This document shows positions 1 to 7,571 of a stretch of 7,571 bases of DNA, one piece after another. Position 1 is the stretch's first letter. Each line of letters begins with the position of its first letter. The position numbers and the translations under genes were made by a program. The notes beneath the pieces are model-generated. The model did not search any database. It worked only from the letters and a program-made list of their open reading frames with translations, and was not told the DNA's origin. This DNA is from a virus. Lineage: Duplodnaviria; Heunggongvirae; Uroviricota; Caudoviricetes. The stretch covers positions 1-7,571 of IMG/VR virus record IMGVR_UViG_2529293138_000004. One strand, given 5' to 3'.

Positions 1-1230
1 ATGAGCAGAGCACTTAACAAACTGAGTGATACACAGCTAAGGAAAATCAACGGCACACCCGCCCAAAAAACAGCCTTTCTTAATGACGGTGGAAACCTGA
101 GCGTCAGGCATTCAACCAGCGGCCTTTTAACCTGGTATTTCACTTACAGGGCCGGAACGGGAAGGGGGGCACCACCGGAACGCATTAAGCTGGGAAATTA
201 TCCTGATCTGAGCCTGAAATCAGCCAGGGAAAAAGCCGCCCAGTGTCGCGCATGGCTGGCTGAGGGGAAAAATCCACGTCATGAGATGAATTACACCGTA
301 CAGGAAGCGTTAAAGCCGGTAACGGTTGGCGATGCGCTCACCTACTGGCTTGAGTCGTACGCAAAGGAAAACCGCGTGGATTATGCCGCCCTGAAAAAGC
401 GCCTTAATAATCACGTAATACAGCACATTGGTGCTATGCCGCTGGATAAATGCGAGCTACGGCACTGGCTGGCCTGTTTTGACCAGGTGGCAAAGCGAAC
501 GCCTGTTACTGCCGGATTCTTGCTACAGACGTGCAAACAGGCGCTTAAGTTCTGCCGGAGGCGGCGCTATGCAATCAGCAACGTTCTTGATGATATGAGT
601 GTGGCGGACGTTGGGAAAAAACCGGATATAAGCGAGCGTGTCTTAAGCACCAAAGAACTGGGCGAATTATTGCAGGCTCTGGACAAAAAAATATTCTCCC
701 CCTACTACATCGCGTTAATCCGCCTCCTGATTGTTTTCGGATGCCGGACGGTAGAACTGAGGTTATCGGAGATCAGCGAGTGGGATTTTACCGAAATGCT
801 CTGGACCGTGCCGAAAGAACACAGCAAAACGAAGGTGGCAATATTCCGGCCCATACCGGAAGCAATACTGCCGTTCGTCACGCAGCTGGTGGAGCAGAAC
901 AGGCACACGGGCTTATTGCTGGGGGAAGTGAAACAGGAAACAAGCGTGTCGCAGTACGGCAGATTAGCGCACAGGAGGCTAAAACACCCTCACTGGTCAC
1001 TGCATGACATCCGGCGCACCTTTACAACGATGCTGAACGATTTAGGCGTGGATCCTCACGTCGTGGAGCAGCTTACAGGTCATCAGATGCCAGGGATGCA
1101 ACGAGTCTATAACCATTCCCGTTATCTGGATGCGAAACGTGACGCGCTGGATATGTGGACGGAGCGGTTAGGGATACTGGCGGGAACACATGAAAACGTA
1201 ACTACCTTGCCAATAGCCAGAGAAATATAA
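1..1230 (+). CDS. int: Tyrosine recombinase / phage integrase, P4-like family (409 aa)
   Basis: ORF 1-1230. N-terminal arm-type DNA-binding region (LSDTQLR..DGGNL..WYFTYR..KLGNYPDLSLKSAREKA), catalytic box I Arg (FGCRTVEL), HDIRRTF (H-x-x-R) and C-terminal Tyr (RVYNHSRYLD). The window starts exactly at the ATG, so the true 5' end and the attachment site upstream cannot be verified. Confidence 0.9.
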   Translation: MSRALNKLSDTQLRKINGTPAQKTAFLNDGGNLSVRHSTSGLLTWYFTYRAGTGRGAPPERIKLGNYPDLSLKSAREKAAQCRAWLAEGKNPRHEMNYTVQEALKPVTVGDALTYWLESYAKENRVDYAALKKRLNNHVIQHIGAMPLDKCELRHWLACFDQVAKRTPVTAGFLLQTCKQALKFCRRRRYAISNVLDDMSVADVGKKPDISERVLSTKELGELLQALDKKIFSPYYIALIRLLIVFGCRTVELRLSEISEWDFTEMLWTVPKEHSKTKVAIFRPIPEAILPFVTQLVEQNRHTGLLLGEVKQETSVSQYGRLAHRRLKHPHWSLHDIRRTFTTMLNDLGVDPHVVEQLTGHQMPGMQRVYNHSRYLDAKRDALDMWTERLGILAGTHENVTTLPIAREI

Positions 1231-1590: not shown

Positions 1591-1779
1591 GTGTTAAGCA
1601 CAGATCGCTTTATACGTGAAAAAGAATGTCAGCAACTTACAGGCCTGAGCCGCTCATGTCGGTACCGCCTGGAAAAAGCCGGACAATTTCCATCACGGCG
1701 TAAGCTCGGCGGTCGTTCCGTTGGCTGGTCTTTATCCGAAGTTCTGGCATGGAAGGACAGCTGCGAGGCAGTTCACTAA
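1591..1779 (+). CDS. alpA: AlpA/Vis-family prophage transcriptional regulator (62 aa, GTG start)
   Basis: GTG at 1591 preceded by AGGGGGAA Shine-Dalgarno (1581-1588). Helix-turn-helix signature LTGLSRSCRYRLEKAGQFP..KLGGRSVGWSLSEVLAW is typical of AlpA-type regulators found next to P4-like integrases. Confidence 0.85.
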   Translation: MLSTDRFIREKECQQLTGLSRSCRYRLEKAGQFPSRRKLGGRSVGWSLSEVLAWKDSCEAVH

Positions 1780-1831: not shown

Positions 1832-2131
1832 ATGAATACTGGATATTCTCCCGAACAAGGGCGGGGCTTCGTTCGTCCTGAAAAACAGAATCTGCAAAAT
1901 TTTGCCGAAATTATTCCGGTTATTTCCGGCCTTACTGGCGGGAGTGAAACCAATATTGTTAACGACAGAGCGTTGCAGATGTTTGATGATAAAAAGGGAG
2001 TAAATTTAACTTACACCCCTGACGGCAATCAGAATATGAGCATTATCTCTGAGTCAGGTTTCTACAAACTAATAAAAACAAAAAGCGCCCCGTTGCCGGA
2101 GCGCCTTTGTGAACAATTAACCTGCTGCACA
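1832..2131 (+). pseudogene. BRO-N domain-like ORF (antirepressor-associated N-terminal domain); no in-frame stop until 3232, likely frameshifted or degraded
   Basis: Residues ~20-95 (NIVNDRALQMFDDKKGVNL..GNQNMSIISESGFYKLIKTKSAPLPERL) match the BRO-N pattern (..LDDDEKG....MTVINESGLYSLILRSRKPEAKKF..). Downstream the same frame becomes Cys/Ser-rich low-quality sequence antisense to a better small gene. An A8 tract at 2201-2208 lies inside the ORF; removing one A would terminate at TGA 2232-2234. Confidence 0.4.
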
Positions 2132-2319
2132 AAAAATAAATATGAGCAGTGGGATTATATCATCCAGGTGACGAAGCGCCACAATTGCCGGATAACAGGC
2201 AAAAAAAAGGCGACCGCAAAATGGTCGCCAGTGAGAACAAAGGAAATCAAACGCGTCACCAACAATGCCACATTTGCGGCTGGTGGGCAATGTGATCAGT
2301 GTGCTGGCTTGCTGGTGGG

Positions 2320-2499
2320 CTATTCCTGTTCTTTGGCCTTGCGACGCTGGCGGCGTTTGATCTCGCCTTTTGCGGCAGTAACTAAAAAACCAGCGGTACT
2401 TTCGCCAGGTTCTTTAAGTTGCTCAATATCATCCATTACTTCATGTGGGATTCTGACAGTTGTCATTTGTGATTTTGCGTTCTTTGCACCAGTTGCCAT
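2320..2499 (-). CDS. Small ribbon-helix-helix (Arc/CopG-like) putative DNA-binding protein, 59 aa
   Basis: Minus-strand ATG (complement of 2497-2499) preceded by AGGAG at 8-nt spacing; product MATGAKNAKSQMTTVRIPHEVMDDIEQLKEPGESTAGFLVTAAKGEIKRRQRRKAKEQE has an RHH-like beta-strand (TVRIP) followed by two helices. The longer track ORF (to 2667) adds a non-protein-like extension. Confidence 0.5.
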   Translation of the reverse strand: MATGAKNAKSQMTTVRIPHEVMDDIEQLKEPGESTAGFLVTAAKGEIKRRQRRKAKEQE

Positions 2500-2566
2500 T
2501 TCTGGATCTCCTAAAAATTGGTGTATGCCAGTATACGCAAAAAAAATGATAAAAAAAGGCTTGAAG

Positions 2567-2611
2567 TGTATTTCACCAGTGAGTAAATTAAAAAGCAAAG
2601 GTGAAATACAC
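2567..2611. promoter_or_regulatory. Perfect 12-bp inverted repeat GTGTATTTCACC / GGTGAAATACAC with 21-bp spacer; candidate operator upstream of the RHH gene
   Basis: Arms at 2567-2578 and 2600-2611; a third GTGTAT half-site at 2521-2526; a -10-like TATACT on the minus strand (complement of 2527-2532) between the repeat and the RHH start. Confidence 0.4.
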
Positions 2612-2764
2612 CTAAAAGAGCAACGCCCCGCAGTGCTCGCAACACATGCAGGGCGTCTAACCACCAACGATAGAAAGAGTATCGAGGTAGCTATGAGAAA
2701 TCATACCACACACCCGCAAGGGCGGGACTCGCACAACCTGAATAAAGCGGGTATGAAAAACCTG

Positions 2765-2794
2765 TTGATCGCCACTGCCAGCCAGGGCTATGAT
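2765..2794 (+). promoter_or_regulatory. Candidate sigma70 promoter (TTGATC-N18-TATGAT) facing the icd-like region
   Basis: -35-like TTGATC 2765-2770, 18-nt spacer, -10-like TATGAT 2789-2794. Sequence match only. Confidence 0.3.
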
Positions 2795-2856
2795 TCATGT
2801 GCACCTCATAAAACGGGTGCCGGGATTACCACCCCGCTGATGTCCAGGGCGATACA

Positions 2857-2878
2857 GACGCCGCACGCGTCTTTTTTT
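2857..2878 (+). terminator. Intrinsic terminator-like hairpin (GACGC-cgcac-GCGTC) followed by T7
   Basis: Stem 2857-2861 / 2867-2871, then TTTTTTT 2872-2878. It sits in the leader between the candidate promoter and the structured RNA/icd region. Confidence 0.5.
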
Positions 2879-2907
2879 GTATCGGCGCACACGCACACCT
2901 TAACAAT

Positions 2908-2987
2908 GGTGGGCTGTACGGGGCCGACTTCGGTCGGGCTGGTCACCTTGGACGCCAGTTGTGGTAACCCTGTACAGTCCACCGCCA
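2908..2987 (+). ncRNA. Candidate tRNA-like structured RNA (P1 c4 / P4 CI antisense-RNA-like) immediately upstream of the first Icd-like ORF
   Basis: 12-bp closing stem 2908-2919 (GGTGGGCTGTAC) with 2972-2983 (GTACAGTCCACC, one G-U) followed by GCCA (2984-2987), enclosing a cUUCGg tetraloop hairpin (2924-2937) and a second hairpin (2941-2969). Structure is by eye, not computed. Confidence 0.3.
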
Positions 2988-3043
2988 GCGAGCTTACCAC
3001 CTCCGGCGGTGGGGATATCCCAACGTCTAAGGAGGCTGCCAAC

Positions 3044-3232
3044 ATGGCTACTACGCCTACCCTTATACATTCTCAAACTGCCTTTATCTGGCGCTTTATC
3101 ATCTTTGGCGCGTCAGAATCCCAAATCATCCACGTCACCGCCTGGACAGAACGCGAAGCGCGTAACCATTGCCCGTCCGGTTGTGTCGCTGTATTCGCCG
3201 CCCGTATTCGTCAGGGGTCACATCATGCTTAA
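3044..3232 (+). CDS. Icd-like small protein (host cell-division-inhibitor Icd / Ash-family-like), copy A, 62 aa
   Basis: ATG 3044 preceded by AAGGAGG (3029-3035). Product MATTPTLIHSQTAFIWRF...TEREARNH...VFAARIRQGSHHA, with the W-R-F ... TERE ... FAARIR pattern recalled for Icd-like proteins of P4-type elements. A longer in-frame annotation (from ATG 2906) is possible, but the strong internal SD favours the short form. Confidence 0.65.
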   Translation: MATTPTLIHSQTAFIWRFIIFGASESQIIHVTAWTEREARNHCPSGCVAVFAARIRQGSHHA

Positions 3233-3518
3233 AAACCGCTTGCAAAAAATTATCACGGGGCTGTATGCTTCCCCCGTCGCCCACATGGCGACCGGGTTTG
3301 ACAGCCTGAATAACATAGCGGACAGCCGCTTATATTCCGATATGCGGTTTTTTTGTGTCCGTAAACCTACCCATACCCGCATTATGGCGGGGCGTAACGG
3401 GGGAGCCTTTGCGCTCGCTGGTTTCTATGTTGCCAGTCTGTCAACCCTGTTACGTCTCGCCACCATGTTTGACAGCGTAGTAGCGAGACTCCTTACATCA
3501 AACATAGGAGCCTTTCAC

Positions 3519-3689
3519 ATGGCTGTATCCGCACGCCCTTACTTTGTCTGGCGCTTTATGCAGTGCCAGGAAAAACAAACCTCACTCTTTACCGTCACGG
3601 CAACAACAGAACGCGAAGCCCGCGCCCAGTTGCCGTACGCCCATCTGATTTTCGCCGCCCGTATTCGTCAGGAGGTGTGCCATGATTAA
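3519..3689 (+). CDS. Icd-like small protein, copy B (paralog of 3044-3232), 56 aa
   Basis: ATG 3519 preceded by AGGAG (3506-3510). Product MAVSARPYFVWRF...TEREARAQ...IFAARIRQEVCHD. Exact 22-bp repeat TTCGCCGCCCGTATTCGTCAGG at 3194-3215 and 3651-3672, and ACAGAACGCGAAGC shared with copy A. An in-frame upstream ATG at 3225 gives an alternative 154-aa form. Confidence 0.65.
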   Translation: MAVSARPYFVWRFMQCQEKQTSLFTVTATTEREARAQLPYAHLIFAARIRQEVCHD

Positions 3690-4038
3690 CCTGTCACTTA
3701 TCGACCTTAACCGCATCCAGTTTCGTGAGAAATTTACCTGGCAGCTACTGGTCAATGTAGAGAATGGACGCGTGGTAAGTAATTATCACCTGCCGGATGG
3801 TGCAATTGCCGGAAGCGTTGAAGCATTGCTGGAGCTGGCAGAACGTGCGCGACTGATTAAGCCGTTAACGTGCCATCACGATGATGATCTGCATTTTACC
3901 GGACGTATGATGAGCAATTATGAAAACGGCGTTGAAGCATCCCGCGAACGTCTGCATGATGATTACTGTTTCGGCACATTGCCGGAATTTATCGAATTGC
4001 TGACCAGTTGCGGTTATCAGGTCATTCAGGGGGGGTAA
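3682..4038 (+). CDS. Hypothetical protein, 118 aa
   Basis: ATG 3682 overlaps the icdB stop (ATGATTAA) and is preceded by AGGAGG (3671-3675), indicating translational coupling. Position after c4/icd matches the ant slot of P1 immI, but no motif was recognised. Confidence 0.75.
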   Translation: MINLSLIDLNRIQFREKFTWQLLVNVENGRVVSNYHLPDGAIAGSVEALLELAERARLIKPLTCHHDDDLHFTGRMMSNYENGVEASRERLHDDYCFGTLPEFIELLTSCGYQVIQGG

Positions 4039-4040
4039 AC

Positions 4041-4292
4041 ATGCGTGATGATCGTTTTAATTCCCTGAAACAGGAATTTTCCGGCGTGTCTTATGATGCG
4101 GGTGATGCGCTTTTATCAATATCTGAAATTATGCGGGTGGCTTTTTTCTTTCTTTGCACTGATGAGCACAGGGATACAGGACTAAATATTCTTGATATCG
4201 CCTCTGATTATGCTGATTACGTGGCTGAATTTAATTTAAGAGAAAAACAGTTATTACGCGAACAGAATAAAACGCCTTCCACCGGAGAATAA
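4041..4292 (+). CDS. Hypothetical protein, 83 aa
   Basis: ATG 4041 two nt after the upstream stop, preceded by a G-rich SD (4028-4035). The track's longer form starts at TTG 4008 inside the upstream gene and is less likely. Confidence 0.6.
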   Translation: MRDDRFNSLKQEFSGVSYDAGDALLSISEIMRVAFFFLCTDEHRDTGLNILDIASDYADYVAEFNLREKQLLREQNKTPSTGE

Positions 4293-4297
4293 AAATA

Positions 4298-4585
4298 ATG
4301 AAACTTAAATATTCTGGCTTAACTGCCAGCGGCACCGCTCGGCCTGAAATCCGTAACGGCGATATTTACCGCGATAAATATGGCGGCATGGTAACGATTA
4401 AAGGCGTGGCAGAACGGCGCATCACCTACCGCCGTGAAGGTTACGAATATGATTGCGTGATGCCTGTTTATCAATTCCGGCGTGATTTCACGCTGGTAGG
4501 CCATCGTAAAGCCGTTAATCAGAAACGTGCAACAGGTTATATCCGCAAAATCCGTGAAATGCTGGTCGCAGGGGGTAAGAAATGA
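4298..4585 (+). CDS. Hypothetical small protein, 95 aa (tentatively DUF4222-like: YRD and GxV motifs)
   Basis: ATG 4298 with GGAGA upstream; contains IYRDKYGGMVTIKGV. The family assignment is from memory and is low-certainty. Confidence 0.7.
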   Translation: MKLKYSGLTASGTARPEIRNGDIYRDKYGGMVTIKGVAERRITYRREGYEYDCVMPVYQFRRDFTLVGHRKAVNQKRATGYIRKIREMLVAGGKK

Positions 4586-5979
4586 AACTGGCACCGAACG
4601 TAAAACGATTACCGAAAGATAAATACACCGATGCGATTATTTTTGCGGGTATTGATGCTCACTCATTCGCAGAGCATTACATCATTGCACAGGCCAAAAA
4701 AGCAGGCGATCCAGTCCCTCCCGTTTATCTGGGGCGTTATCAGTTAAGCGAACTGGATAACCTCCAGATTGTTGATGATGGGCGATACAGGGCGACGGTG
4801 ATACGCGCCGGAAATATTGAAGAGCCGCAGCTGTTAACCATCGCCACGAAACTGGCGATCGCCGGAGTCCAGGAGGCGCGGCTACTTTCTGAAAATTTCG
4901 AATTGCTGGAGGAATGGAGCGACCAGCTTCCACGGCTTAGGGAGACATGGGAACGCGGGGAAAGCCTGAGCAACCAGCGAAAAACCACGCTACCAATGAG
5001 CGTGGGATCTGCCGGATACGACACACAACTTGATTACGTGGTTAAGGGAATTATTCCGGCTGTATCGCTTTGCAGCATATACGGGGCGAGCGGTTCCTAT
5101 AAATCATTCCTTGCCGGATCGTGGGCGTGTCACGTTTCCACTGGCCGCCAGTGGGGATGCCGCAGGGTGGCGCATGGCGCTGTTCTCTATGTGGTTGGTG
5201 AAGGCGGTATCGGCGTTCCTCGTCGTGTAAAAGCCTGGGAGGTTGTGCACGGTGAGCAGGTGAAAAATCTGTATCTGGTAAACCGTCCCATCTTTCCGGC
5301 TGCCCCGCTTGATGTTGATGAAATGGTTATCGCTGCCCGTCAGGTGGAACGGGAAACGGGTAAACCTGTACGCATGATTATTCTGGATACGCTGGCGCGG
5401 TGCTTTGGTGGCAATGATGAAAATGATTCCCGTGATATGGGGGCGTTTATCCGTGGGTGTGACGAACTGAAACGACGCACAGGGGCCACGGTGCTGGTGG
5501 TTCACCATTCCGGCAAGGATGAAACAAAGGGAGCGCGTGGTTCCAGTGCATTTCGTGCTTCGCTGGATGCTGAATACCGGATACGCAGGGAGGACGCAGG
5601 AAGCGAAGCCCTGGTTATCTCATGCACCAAAATGAAGGATGCGGAGGAACTCAAAGAAGCCGCATATGACTTACGCGTGGTGGAGCTTTTTACCGACGCT
5701 GACGGGGAGTTAATCACGTCGCTGGTGGTGGTGGATAAGCCGCGCCCTCCCGTTGAACTGGAGCGCATCGAGGAGGCTGGCAACAAGACGGAAAACCATA
5801 CCGCGCTATGGGGATGCATACGTTCACGCACACAGAACGGCGACAAGTGCACGATCCCGCTGTTACGTGATGACATGAAAAAACTGGGGTACGAAATGAA
5901 AAACTTCCGGCGCTGGCTGTACAAGCTGGAAAAAGACAGGGTTATTCGTATCGATGGGGATGATGTAGCGCCGCTATAA
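4582..5979 (+). CDS. RecA-fold replicative ATPase/helicase-like protein (AAA_25 / RepA-like), 465 aa
   Basis: ATG 4582 overlaps the upstream stop (ATGA). P-loop region IYGASGSYKSFLAG, Walker B/sensor region MIILDTLARCFGGNDENDSRDMGAFIRGCDELKRRTGATVLVVHHSGKD, matching the pattern of AAA_25 family replication helicases. N-terminal ~150 aa unassigned; no primase domain evident. Confidence 0.85.
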   Translation: MKLAPNVKRLPKDKYTDAIIFAGIDAHSFAEHYIIAQAKKAGDPVPPVYLGRYQLSELDNLQIVDDGRYRATVIRAGNIEEPQLLTIATKLAIAGVQEARLLSENFELLEEWSDQLPRLRETWERGESLSNQRKTTLPMSVGSAGYDTQLDYVVKGIIPAVSLCSIYGASGSYKSFLAGSWACHVSTGRQWGCRRVAHGAVLYVVGEGGIGVPRRVKAWEVVHGEQVKNLYLVNRPIFPAAPLDVDEMVIAARQVERETGKPVRMIILDTLARCFGGNDENDSRDMGAFIRGCDELKRRTGATVLVVHHSGKDETKGARGSSAFRASLDAEYRIRREDAGSEALVISCTKMKDAEELKEAAYDLRVVELFTDADGELITSLVVVDKPRPPVELERIEEAGNKTENHTALWGCIRSRTQNGDKCTIPLLRDDMKKLGYEMKNFRRWLYKLEKDRVIRIDGDDVAPL

Positions 5980-6156
5980 AGTGAGGTGCAAAAGCGAGGT
6001 GTATAGAAGGAGGGCCAAAATTAGACCGCTACCCCTCACTTTTCGGCCTGTATACATCCTCAAAAGTGAGGGGCAAAAAAATACTTATGAAACACACACA
6101 TAGAAAAAGCGAAAATCTCAAGCGAGACGGAGCCAGACACTTTAAAAAGTGAGGCG
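5978..6156. repeat. Iteron array AAAG(T/C)GAGG(T/G)G (direct and inverted copies) with an AT-rich stretch; candidate replication origin
   Basis: Copies at 5978-5988, 5991-6001, 6062-6073, 6144-6156, inverted copy 6032-6043 (forming a 12-bp inverted repeat with 6062-6073), and degenerate copies at 6104-6115 and 6119-6130. Lies directly downstream of the replication ATPase gene. Confidence 0.5.
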
Positions 6157-6178
6157 AAAAACTGAGAGTTTGCGAGAA

Positions 6179-6430
6179 ATGAACAAAATGCGTAGAGACA
6201 GAACAGAGCCAAAATATAAAGCGTTAGACATGACAGAGCACGCTTTAAAGGTGGCAATCAGAACGATAGACCGCCACGCGGGGGAAGGATACGCGAAGGA
6301 ACATCCCGACATGATAAGCGCATTCATGACCACAGCAGCGGCAAACTTTGCCACGCTGACAGAACGGGAGATTGCCGAAGCGGAACAGGTAACAACCATC
6401 AACGTTAAAACCGGAGAGCAGACAGCATGA
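6179..6430 (+). CDS. Hypothetical protein (~83 aa; start ambiguous among GTG 6149, ATG 6179, 6188, 6230)
   Basis: ORF ends with a TGA overlapping the ATG of the SSB gene (ATGA at 6427-6430), suggesting coupling; no recognisable motif and weak SD candidates. Confidence 0.5.
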   Translation: MNKMRRDRTEPKYKALDMTEHALKVAIRTIDRHAGEGYAKEHPDMISAFMTTAAANFATLTEREIAEAEQVTTINVKTGEQTA

Positions 6431-6933
6431 CAGCACAGATAGCGGCTTACGGACGGCTGGTGGCTGACCCGCAGTTAAAGACCACCAGCAAGGGTACACA
6501 AATGACGATGGCGAGTATGGCGGTCCCCCTTCCGTGCAGCCAGGCAGATGACGGAGCGGCGACGATGTGGTTATCCGTCATGGCGTTTGGCAGACAGGCC
6601 GACGCACTGGCAAAACACCACAAAGGCGAACTGGTGAGCGTGGCGGGTAACATGCAGGTAAGTCAGTGGACAGGCCAGAACGGCGAAACGCGGCAGGGCT
6701 GGCAGGTTATCGCAGACAGCATAATCAGTGCGAGAACGGCGCGACCTGGCGGCAAAAAAGGCCAGCAGGGGCAGGCTACTGATGCACTGAACAGGGCAAA
6801 ACAACAGGCGGGTAACGATGATCCGTACGGGATAACATACCGTTTTAAGCAACGAGTAACAGAAGCCGGAGAAGTCCGGCTTTTTTATGCCCCAAAAAAA
6901 GCCCGGAGGGTCTTATCGGGCTTTTGCATATGA
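6427..6933 (+). CDS. ssb: Single-stranded DNA-binding protein (SSB-like OB fold), 168 aa with atypical C-terminus
   Basis: GGAGAG SD at 6414-6419. The pattern IAAYGRLVADPQLKTT..MWLSVMAFGRQADALAKHHKGELVSVAGNMQVSQWTGQNGETRQGWQVIADSI parallels E. coli SSB ([66 protein letters not shown]). The C-terminal ~25 codons read through two terminator-like hairpins. Confidence 0.8.
   Translation: MTAQIAAYGRLVADPQLKTTSKGTQMTMASMAVPLPCSQADDGAATMWLSVMAFGRQADALAKHHKGELVSVAGNMQVSQWTGQNGETRQGWQVIADSIISARTARPGGKKGQQGQATDALNRAKQQAGNDDPYGITYRFKQRVTEAGEVRLFYAPKKARRVLSGFCI
6865..6886 (+). terminator. Intrinsic terminator (GCCGGA-gaag-TCCGGC followed by T6)
   Basis: Stem 6865-6870 / 6875-6880, loop 6871-6874, T-tract 6881-6886; located inside the 3' end of the SSB ORF as currently delimited. 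Confidence 0.6.
6898..6924. terminator. Second hairpin (AAAGCCCG...CGGGCTTT) flanked by an A-tract and a T-tract; possible bidirectional terminator
   Basis: Stem 6898-6905 / 6917-6924 with an 11-nt loop; A7 upstream would provide a U-tract for minus-strand transcripts. Confidence 0.35.
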
Positions 6934-7003
6934 GGTTTTTTTGGTGCGCTGACACACATGATCGGGATAATAATTTCATAATTTGCAACATAACTCAATA
7001 TTA

Positions 7004-7052
7004 TTGCACAAAATGCAATCATGATTATAATCATGACTGGATGAACATCCAG
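7004..7052 (+). promoter_or_regulatory. Consensus-like sigma70 promoter (TTGCAC-N16-TATAAT) with overlapping palindromic operators
   Basis: -35 at 7004-7009; perfect -10 TATAAT at 7026-7031 sitting at the centre of a perfect 18-bp palindrome TCATGATTATAATCATGA (7019-7036); a second inverted repeat CTGGATG-aa-CATCCAG at 7037-7052 around the expected transcription start. Confidence 0.5.
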
Positions 7053-7087
7053 TTATGATTTTTTAAGTCGAAGAGGAATTTCTTACT

Positions 7088-7270
7088 ATGGCTGAAGAGA
7101 AAAAAGGCGGTGTTTCGGTGTACATAAGCTCCGACATCGTGGAGGCGCTCAAGGAACGCCACCAGCAGAACGTAAAGCAGGCATTGCGGCAGGACTTGAT
7201 CCACTGGCGATGGTTGAGCCGTCAACAGGCTGGCAGGTGCGCGCCTATTTACGTGCGGCGCTGGGCATGA
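7088..7270 (+). CDS. Small protein upstream of the capsid gene (60 aa as an intact ORF; possible frameshifted ~68-aa product ending at 7293)
   Basis: ATG 7088 with GAGG upstream. The N-terminal half uses preferred codons in this frame; from about 7170 the other forward frame (ending TAA 7291-7293, abutting the capsid ATG) uses preferred codons (AGIAAGLDPLAMVEPSTGWQVRAYLRAALGMNQTHGGE), while the original frame turns Arg/Trp-rich. Confidence 0.4.
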   Translation: MAEEKKGGVSVYISSDIVEALKERHQQNVKQALRQDLIHWRWLSRQQAGRCAPIYVRRWA

Positions 7271-7293
7271 ATCAGACTCATGGGGGTGAATAA

Positions 7294-7571
7294 TGGCAGG
7301 CAAAGCAACGGCACTTACCACTAATCAGCTTTTCACGTACATGAATCGCGGGGATATTGCGGAATTTAAATTCAGTCCGCTGTTTACCACGCTGTTTTTC
7401 CCGAACGTGGCGACATTCAGCACCCAAAACATCATGCTGGATACCCTGGACATTGAAGAAGTCACTATGTCGGCGTTTTGTTCGCCTATGGTTGGCAGCC
7501 AGGTACAGCGCGATAAAGGGTACGAAACCAGCACAATCAAACCTGGCTACATGAAGCCAAAGCACGAAATC
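7294..7571 (+). CDS. Major capsid protein, lambda gpE family (N-terminal 92 codons; truncated by window end)
   Basis: ATG 7294 preceded by GGGGG (7282-7286). Translation MAGKATALTTNQLFTYMNRGDIAEFKFSPLFTTLFFPNVATFSTQNIMLDTLDIEEVTMSAFCSPMVGSQVQRDKGYETSTIKPGYMKPKHEI parallels lambda E (..FKFDPLFLRLFF..VNMALYVSPIVSGEVIRSRGGSTSEFTPGYVKPKHEV). Not in the supplied ORF track because it has no stop within the window. Confidence 0.85.

Follow-up and report, generated by a model that had tools for sequence, protein, structure and literature searches.

The closest described system to the DNA reported here is EcCICFT073 of Escherichia coli strain CFT073, the prototype Gram-negative phage-inducible chromosomal island (PICI), which by experiment is a helper-dependent, high-frequency transducing island (PMC6092414, PMC6739421). 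Two of its genes, c1499 (capsid) and c1500 (decoration), were described by Fillol-Salom et al. in 2018 (PMC6092414). Deletion of either gene failed to relieve interference with lambda, transfer persisted in these mutants and even after insertion of cat into c1499, and neither gene is required for interference or for transfer by lambda or phi80 (PMC6092414). As these knockout tests covered lambda, phi80 and one CFT073 prophage only (PMC6092414), a role of the two proteins in forming a shell of the island’s own with other helpers stays compatible with the negative results. Lambda packages EcCICFT073 in phage-sized capsids, and the island has two functional cos sites (PMC6092414). The same paper mentions PICIs that bear their own TerS, such as those in strains IHE3034 and 18098, whose helpers were not identified there (PMC6092414). 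The c1499/c1500 results were restated in the 2019 review of Dokland (PMC6893505), and a 2019 Mol Cell paper described the redirection of packaging by Rpp (c1503), which binds the TerS of the helper (PMC6739421). A literature search on the function of c1499 and c1500 yielded only the 2018 results and reviews that restate them.

Capsid genes are by now an expected part of such islands. In the SatelliteFinder paper, capsid morphogenesis is one of five core PICI components, and 97% of the ‘Type A’ PICIs, which have all five, were found in E. coli. Here we compare with these systems the window, by which we mean the whole 7,571-nt stretch of DNA analysed. The window corresponds base for base to positions 5420-12990 of locus L007 (contig AFDZ01000009.1, assembly GCA_000225205.2); it makes up the last 7571 nt of this 1.0-Mb contig of an E. 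coli draft assembly, and its 3' edge is the contig end. The pepT-roxA flank upstream of it shares 99.3% identity with E. coli chromosomes, and its RepA-like helicase protein is also encoded on many E. coli contigs. Downstream content was read from E. coli relatives with the same chromosomal flanks, chiefly the loci L003 and L004, which match the whole window with five substitutions and two 1-nt indels (99.9% identity). The window almost certainly covers the left 70% of a classical Gram-negative PICI that belongs to the EcCICFT073 family and lies between roxA and phoQ in E. coli. Its features are the following.

1..1230, plus strand: tyrosine integrase of 409 aa, arm-binding domain of the P4 type, forming the left end of the island (Pfam Arm-DNA-bind_3 5e-18, Phage_integrase 7e-17)
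1591..1779, plus strand: AlpA-family regulator, 62 aa, a PICI activator/excision regulator if its role is as in EcCICFT073, PMC6092414 (Pfam Phage_AlpA 3e-18)
2320..2499, minus strand: divergent small protein, 59 aa, YlcI/YnfO family in relatives (gene call in L002/L004, RefSeq annotation in L001/L008)
2693..3232, plus strand: Ash-family/Icd-like regulator, 179 aa (Pfam Phage_ASH 1.2e-8; PHROG transcriptional repressor/regulator families; gene calls)
3225-3689, plus strand: gene for a 154-aa protein (gene calls, PHROG hits)
3682-4038, plus strand: gene for a 118-aa protein (gene calls, PHROG hits)
4041-4292, plus strand: gene for an 83-aa protein (gene calls, PHROG hits)
4298..4585, plus strand: DUF4222 protein, 95 aa (Pfam DUF4222 3e-25)
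4582..5979, plus strand: RepA-like replicative helicase, 465 aa, predicted replication initiator/helicase (Pfam AAA_25 3e-42; RefSeq ‘helicase RepA family protein’)
5975..6166, no strand: putative replication origin with iterons AAAGTGAGG (repeat search)
6179..6430, plus strand: 83-aa protein, phrog_1231 (gene calls; PHROG 1.3e-51)
6427..6933, plus strand: single-stranded DNA-binding protein (SSB), 168 aa (Pfam SSB 7e-16)
6865..6886, plus strand: terminator-like hairpin GCCGGAGAAGTCCGGCTTTTTT 3' of the usual SSB stop (direct repeat in L003)
6900..7087, plus strand: leader of the late/packaging operon (alignment, RNA fold)
7088..7270, plus strand: small ORF, phrog_3255, 60 aa in the window (gene calls, PHROG)
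7293..7571, plus strand: PICI major-capsid-protein homologue of the lambda gpE family, first 93 codons (BLASTP, Pfam, CFT073 comparison)

The window itself thus contains an integrase at its left end with an AlpA regulator beside it, a replicase with a putative ori, and a capsid gene, all of them features of PICI membership, and the satellite context given in the preliminary description holds, as the integrase with its P4-type arm domain, AlpA, the helicase, the iterons and SSB were each found. The open reading frame of 466 aa that a mechanical call places at 1832-3232 is spurious, being an over-extension of the 179-aa Ash-family gene. The 154-aa protein encoded next repeats the C-terminal ~50 aa of this Ash-like regulator (direct repeats with a spacing of ~460 nt). 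In E. coli PICIs the DUF4222 gene is kept just 5' of the replicase gene, and it occupies the same place in CFT073 and in strain 2017C-4173W12. The iterons AAAGTGAGG start at 5978, 6063 and 6146, with a spacing of ~84 nt, and an inverted copy lies at 6034-6043; the region 5975-6166 is a probable origin. It is found directly 3' of the helicase gene and overlaps the start of the next ORF. The published PICI ori is also immediately 3' of rep (PMC6092414).

A P4-type arm-binding integrase followed by AlpA, together with the Icd-like annotation in relatives, would also fit a P4-like satellite, that is, an element whose helper capsid is remodelled by external scaffolds. However, Pfam and PHROG scans and gene calls for the window and its relatives recovered neither a Sid-, Psu- or Delta-like protein nor a P4-type alpha primase or a P2-type cos. 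Packaging signals of the lambda type are present instead, and only the integrase type and AlpA are common to P4 and this island. Such an origin has next to no probability in our estimate, and the classical PICI reading is followed below.

The ORF at the right end of the window starts with an ATG at 7293-7295, and its 93 codons run without a stop up to the final base; the preliminary description had placed the start one base off, at 7294, in a frame that is full of stops. Residues 24-93 of the encoded fragment align to residues 16-84 of lambda gpE with 43% identity (pairwise BLASTP, E=4e-17), and 87 of its 93 residues (94%) are identical in the N-terminus of the capsid protein of the CFT073 PICI. 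With Pfam Phage_cap_E the fragment scores 22.0 bits (E=9.9e-5), just below the gathering score of 22.9 bits because the truncation leaves no more than about a quarter of the domain, and the full-length protein of 351 aa in a 99.9% relative reaches 176.5 bits (E=1e-51). The full-length capsid protein of L003 also matches PDB 3BQW (‘putative capsid protein of prophage’) with E=3.6e-232, an entry whose sequence begins like the CFT073 capsid protein, and the lambda gpE structure 7VI9 with E=3.5e-83. Judged by these sequence comparisons, ORF 7293-7571 is the 5' end of a conserved capsid morphogenesis gene, a diverged gpE homologue and the orthologue of CFT073 c1499. The earlier call of a gpE-type capsid gene at the window end, right after the replication module, is therefore borne out by the gpE alignment (43%), the c1499 match (94%) and the Phage_cap_E profile alike.

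What follows the capsid gene is seen in L003 and L004, where the genes after SSB are, in order, a 68-aa ORF, capsid, decoration, a Nu1-like TerS and a 94-aa ORF, followed by phoQ. The decoration protein (111 aa) is gpD-like (Pfam HDPD 8.7e-18), and the small terminase (180 aa) belongs to the Nu1 family (Pfam 4e-23; phrog_57 2.8e-51). The identities to the lambda proteins are 43% for the capsid protein with gpE, 37% for the decoration protein with gpD and, over its full length, 34% for TerS with Nu1. A 31-bp att core, GTGCAACGATCGGTGTAGTTAATGGTGTAGT, is present as identical copies just 5' of int and just before phoQ, 10,847 nt apart; the attL core lies at 5363-5393 of L007, 27-57 nt upstream of the window itself, and the same core is found at attR in CFT073 and in strain 2017C-4173W12. 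In the relatives, the element between roxA and phoQ accordingly measures 10.9 kb, within the range of about 10-15 kb expected of classical PICIs, and ends 3.2 kb beyond the window end. No portal, protease, TerL, HNH, head-tail adaptor, tail or lysis gene was found between attL and attR in L002-L005 by gene calls, Pfam or PHROG. A small terminase or Rpp and a helper-type cos, which are further features of PICI membership, are seen in the 99.9% relatives as the Nu1-like TerS and two exact copies of lambda cosN; the window ends before this region. With integrase, AlpA, replicase, capsid and small terminase, the relatives have all five components of the TerS-encoding ‘Type A’ PICIs of SatelliteFinder, to which they are likened by gene content.

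The E, D and Nu1 homologues and the exact lambda cosN are lambdoid parts, and an explanation to be weighed is that the locus is a compact or degraded lambdoid prophage, in which the capsid gene is a remnant of a head operon beside an unrelated integrase island. Against this, the unit of 10.9 kb is enclosed as a whole by identical att cores, phoQ follows directly, and complete head, tail and lysis modules were not encountered. An intact small ORF-capsid-decoration cassette was counted in 598 of 5426 complete E. coli genomes (~11%), with 82-96% identity and up to five copies per genome, and a dN/dS of ~0.1 speaks against decay. In addition, the order of the two head genes, E then D, is opposite to the D then E of lambda, and the portal, protease/scaffold, TerL, FI/FII and tail parts of lambda are absent in the relatives. 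Among ~50,000 phage records, no capsid protein is more than 47% identical to that of the island (the best, of Gifsy-1, reaches 46.5%), which argues that the PICI capsid gene is a satellite-specific lineage and was not recently picked up from a phage, and EcCICFT073 itself is a proven helper-dependent transducing island (PMC6092414). The prophage explanation consequently has a vanishingly small probability. The preliminary description had preferred a satellite to a prophage, and the att-bounded element of 10.9 kb agrees with it; the prophage of 35-50 kb that it had set as the alternative does not extend downstream, where the 99.9% relatives reach phoQ 3.2 kb after the window.

The presence of major capsid, decoration and small terminase genes in the relatives also raises the possibility of a capsid-forming PICI (cf-PICI) like EcCIEDL933, which makes its own complete heads and steals only tails; the type of int/alpA/rep module, the capsid gene and the small terminase are common to both, and cf-PICIs share int/alpA/rep modules with classical PICIs in general (bioRxiv 10.1101/2022.09.08.507074). 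However, EcCIEDL933 adds portal, protease, TerL, HNH and head-tail adaptor genes and has small heads of its own, and none of these genes occurs between attL and attR in the relatives. Elements of this kind measure ~15 kb, in contrast to 10.9 kb in the relatives, and in the trees of the SatelliteFinder paper the capsid genes of PICIs and cf-PICIs separate almost perfectly. A cf-PICI is thus very improbable, and the element does not qualify as a capsid-forming satellite of this kind, as portal, protease, TerL and head-tail adaptors are lacking in the relatives.

As a classical PICI, the island has an architecture that is already known, the canonical layout of E. coli PICIs, and the claim that it is unusual is contradicted by EcCICFT073, which was published in 2018 and has, at the same attB, the same order of small ORF, c1499 and c1500. 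In Enterobacteria, a capsid gene of the lambda E type that comes after int, alpA, rep and SSB is the signature of classical PICIs and not an anomaly. The finding carries little weight as a discovery: the architecture has been in print since 2018, satellite-finding software already incorporates it, a crystal structure (3BQW) exists, and ~11% of complete E. coli genomes have it.

The two islands share the attB between roxA and phoQ, the 31-bp att core, and int with alpA at the left end; the layout of DUF4222, replicase, ori, small ORF and SSB; the leader, the 68-aa ORF, the E-like capsid protein (94% aa identity on the fragment) and the D-like decoration protein; and finally, as seen in the relatives of the window, the inverted pair of lambda-type cosN sites and a terminal ORF of ~94 aa (72% identity). 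In CFT073, the genes after the 68-aa ORF are annotated as ‘major capsid protein’ and ‘head decoration protein’, and another two genes separate them from the terminal ORF, there of ~93 aa. They differ in replication, where EcCICFT073 has a D5-type primase (D5_N/Pox_D5) and the window a RepA-like AAA_25 helicase, which is thus an analogue and not a homologue of the CFT073 pri-rep. The PerC gene of EcCICFT073 is absent from the window, and its 137-aa c1501/2-like gene is absent from the relatives of the window. The third difference lies between the cos sites, which hold RppA in EcCICFT073 and a full-length Nu1-like TerS in the relatives.

L003 has two exact copies of lambda cosN, which flank terS and point in opposite directions (14245-14256, plus strand; 15112-15123, minus strand), and an inverted pair of equally exact cosN sites flanks rppA in CFT073 (locus L008, 7559-7570, plus strand; 8298-8309, minus strand). 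In the window, no cosN was found with two mismatches allowed, and the relatives place the cos sites past the end of the contig. Over its 12 nt, cosN does not differ from that of phage lambda; at the first L003 copy, the neighbouring sequence on the cosQ side and at the beginning of the I1 side is lambda-like as well, and the sequence diverges where cosB would be expected. RppA is here equated with the 144-aa gene of matching length between the CFT073 cos sites. Since the same cosN pair encloses terS in the relatives and the unrelated rppA in CFT073, the region between the sites behaves like a swappable cassette, and the segment looks like an exchangeable determinant of packaging specificity. 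The 180-aa protein was also considered as a variant of Rpp and rejected, because it has no detectable similarity to RppA and no sequence match in PDB and is a full-length Nu1/TerS homologue. The small ORF 7088-7270 was likewise rejected as Rpp: it has no PDB match, and RppA is c1503 (PMC6739421).

Between SSB and the small ORF lies a leader of ~190 nt (6900-7087), which by alignment is nearly invariant among otherwise mosaic islands. It contains a perfect TATAAT (7026-7031), and overlapping this is a perfect hairpin of 14 bp with a U run behind it (7029-7066), which lies 28 nt before the start codon of the late operon and is invariant in all islands compared. The RNA fold gives -21.4 kcal/mol (z=-3.4), and the structure is called as terminator-like. 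This hairpin could be a terminator that needs antitermination, for example by the Q protein of a helper, or a palindromic operator. The strong promoter claimed for this region was not supported by a consensus scan, in which one 9/12 match was obtained against 1.4 expected by chance. The idea that the leader was copied from a lambdoid late-control region was rejected, as a distant blastn search of ~50,000 phage records gave no match.

A second type of hairpin brackets the late genes. Near-identical copies of a terminator hairpin, GCCGGAGAA[G/A]TCCGGCTTTTTT, are found at 6865-6886 of the window (12285-12306 of L003) and at 14191-14212 of L003, the second copy being 3' of the decoration gene in the relatives, and the pair encloses the leader, the 68-aa ORF, capsid and decoration. 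Similarity to CFT073 resumes from window position 6864, approximately at the first hairpin copy, which suggests that the block of leader, ORF, capsid and decoration moves as a module.

Two single-nucleotide deletions distinguish the window from its relatives. One, at 6828 in a G run when compared with L003, carries SSB past its usual stop (6846-6848) and extends it to 168 aa, versus 140 aa in relatives. The other, at 7173 in an A run, shifts the frame of the small ORF and shortens it to 60 aa, versus 68 aa in relatives, in which the TAA stop of this ORF overlaps the ATG of the capsid gene (TAATG); the overlap is lost in the window through this deletion. Frameshifts in the SSB tail and in the small ORF, the latter breaking the TAATG overlap, would be expected if this copy were an inactivated PICI with a decaying late operon. 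However, both deletions fall in homopolymer runs, as sequencing errors typically do, and the draft assembly is fragmented; the remaining genes are intact, and only five substitutions in 7.6 kb separate the window from L003. Decay is thus improbable, although less so than the other rivals considered above, and the two deletions are probably errors of the draft assembly in a PICI that is otherwise like its relatives.

The late genes are maintained by selection. Across four islands, dN/dS ranges over 0.05-0.14 for the capsid gene, 0.06-0.20 for the decoration gene and 0.29-0.44 for the small ORF, values that indicate that all three are kept. A matched capsid/decoration pair is therefore retained under purifying selection (dN/dS ~0.1), though no phenotype was seen in knockouts with the helpers that were tried. 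Trimers of the gpD type bind sites built by three capsid subunits. A matched D homologue would need three-fold sites made by the island’s own E protein, which suggests that this protein forms whole capsomers or shells and not occasional insertions, although we hold this only tentatively and think it somewhat doubtful. A further step, to which we give still less credence, is that the cassette of 68-aa ORF, E and D lets classical PICIs build shells from their own proteins, maybe of another size, with helpers beyond lambda and phi80; the purifying selection, a lineage distinct from all phages and the invariant leader with its terminator-like hairpin are in its support. If this is true, such islands would stand, in function, between PICIs that steal capsids and cf-PICIs.

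The best functional analogy for such a protein is Ccm of SaPIbov5, a cos-packaged island, which is a satellite homologue of the HK97-fold major capsid protein of the helper. Ccm redirects the size and shape of the capsid and interferes with the helper, whereas neither role was found for c1499/c1500 with lambda (PMC6092414), and set against SaPIbov5 Ccm, the island family of the window carries a decoration protein of its own as well.

A life cycle can be proposed for the island along the lines of its family. Induction of alpA by a lambdoid cos helper, as in the published work on EcCICFT073, would be followed by excision of the island and its replication through its own helicase and iteron origin, after which the late operon would be expressed. 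The TerS homologue, or Rpp in other variants, would then steer the large terminase of the helper to the cosB/cosN of the island; in this variant, the Nu1-like TerS is predicted to pair with a gpA-type TerL of the helper and to recognise the island’s own cosB. Concatemers would finally be packaged into helper-encoded heads and fitted with helper-encoded tails. The E-like and D-like proteins would be made together, and may assemble into or as the shell on the portal, scaffold and protease of the helper.

A second, related PICI is present in the same assembly, at a different site (locus L006, contig AFDZ01000018.1), and its contig also stops at capsid codon 93. From window position 4280 onward, which takes in the stretch from the DUF4222 gene to the capsid gene, it shares 99.2% identity with the window, and its left arm differs. 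As L006 shares the same stretch and the same end point, the cut of the window inside the capsid gene is an assembly break at a repeat and does not reflect biology. Because PICIs are mosaic and recombining and the contig ends within the capsid gene, this copy could differ downstream from L003 and L004; it could carry rpp instead of terS, or be truncated. The two islands of this strain illustrate the exchange of modules between co-resident islands. The L006 island adjoins a sulfatase-domain gene, and its integrase has 413 aa.
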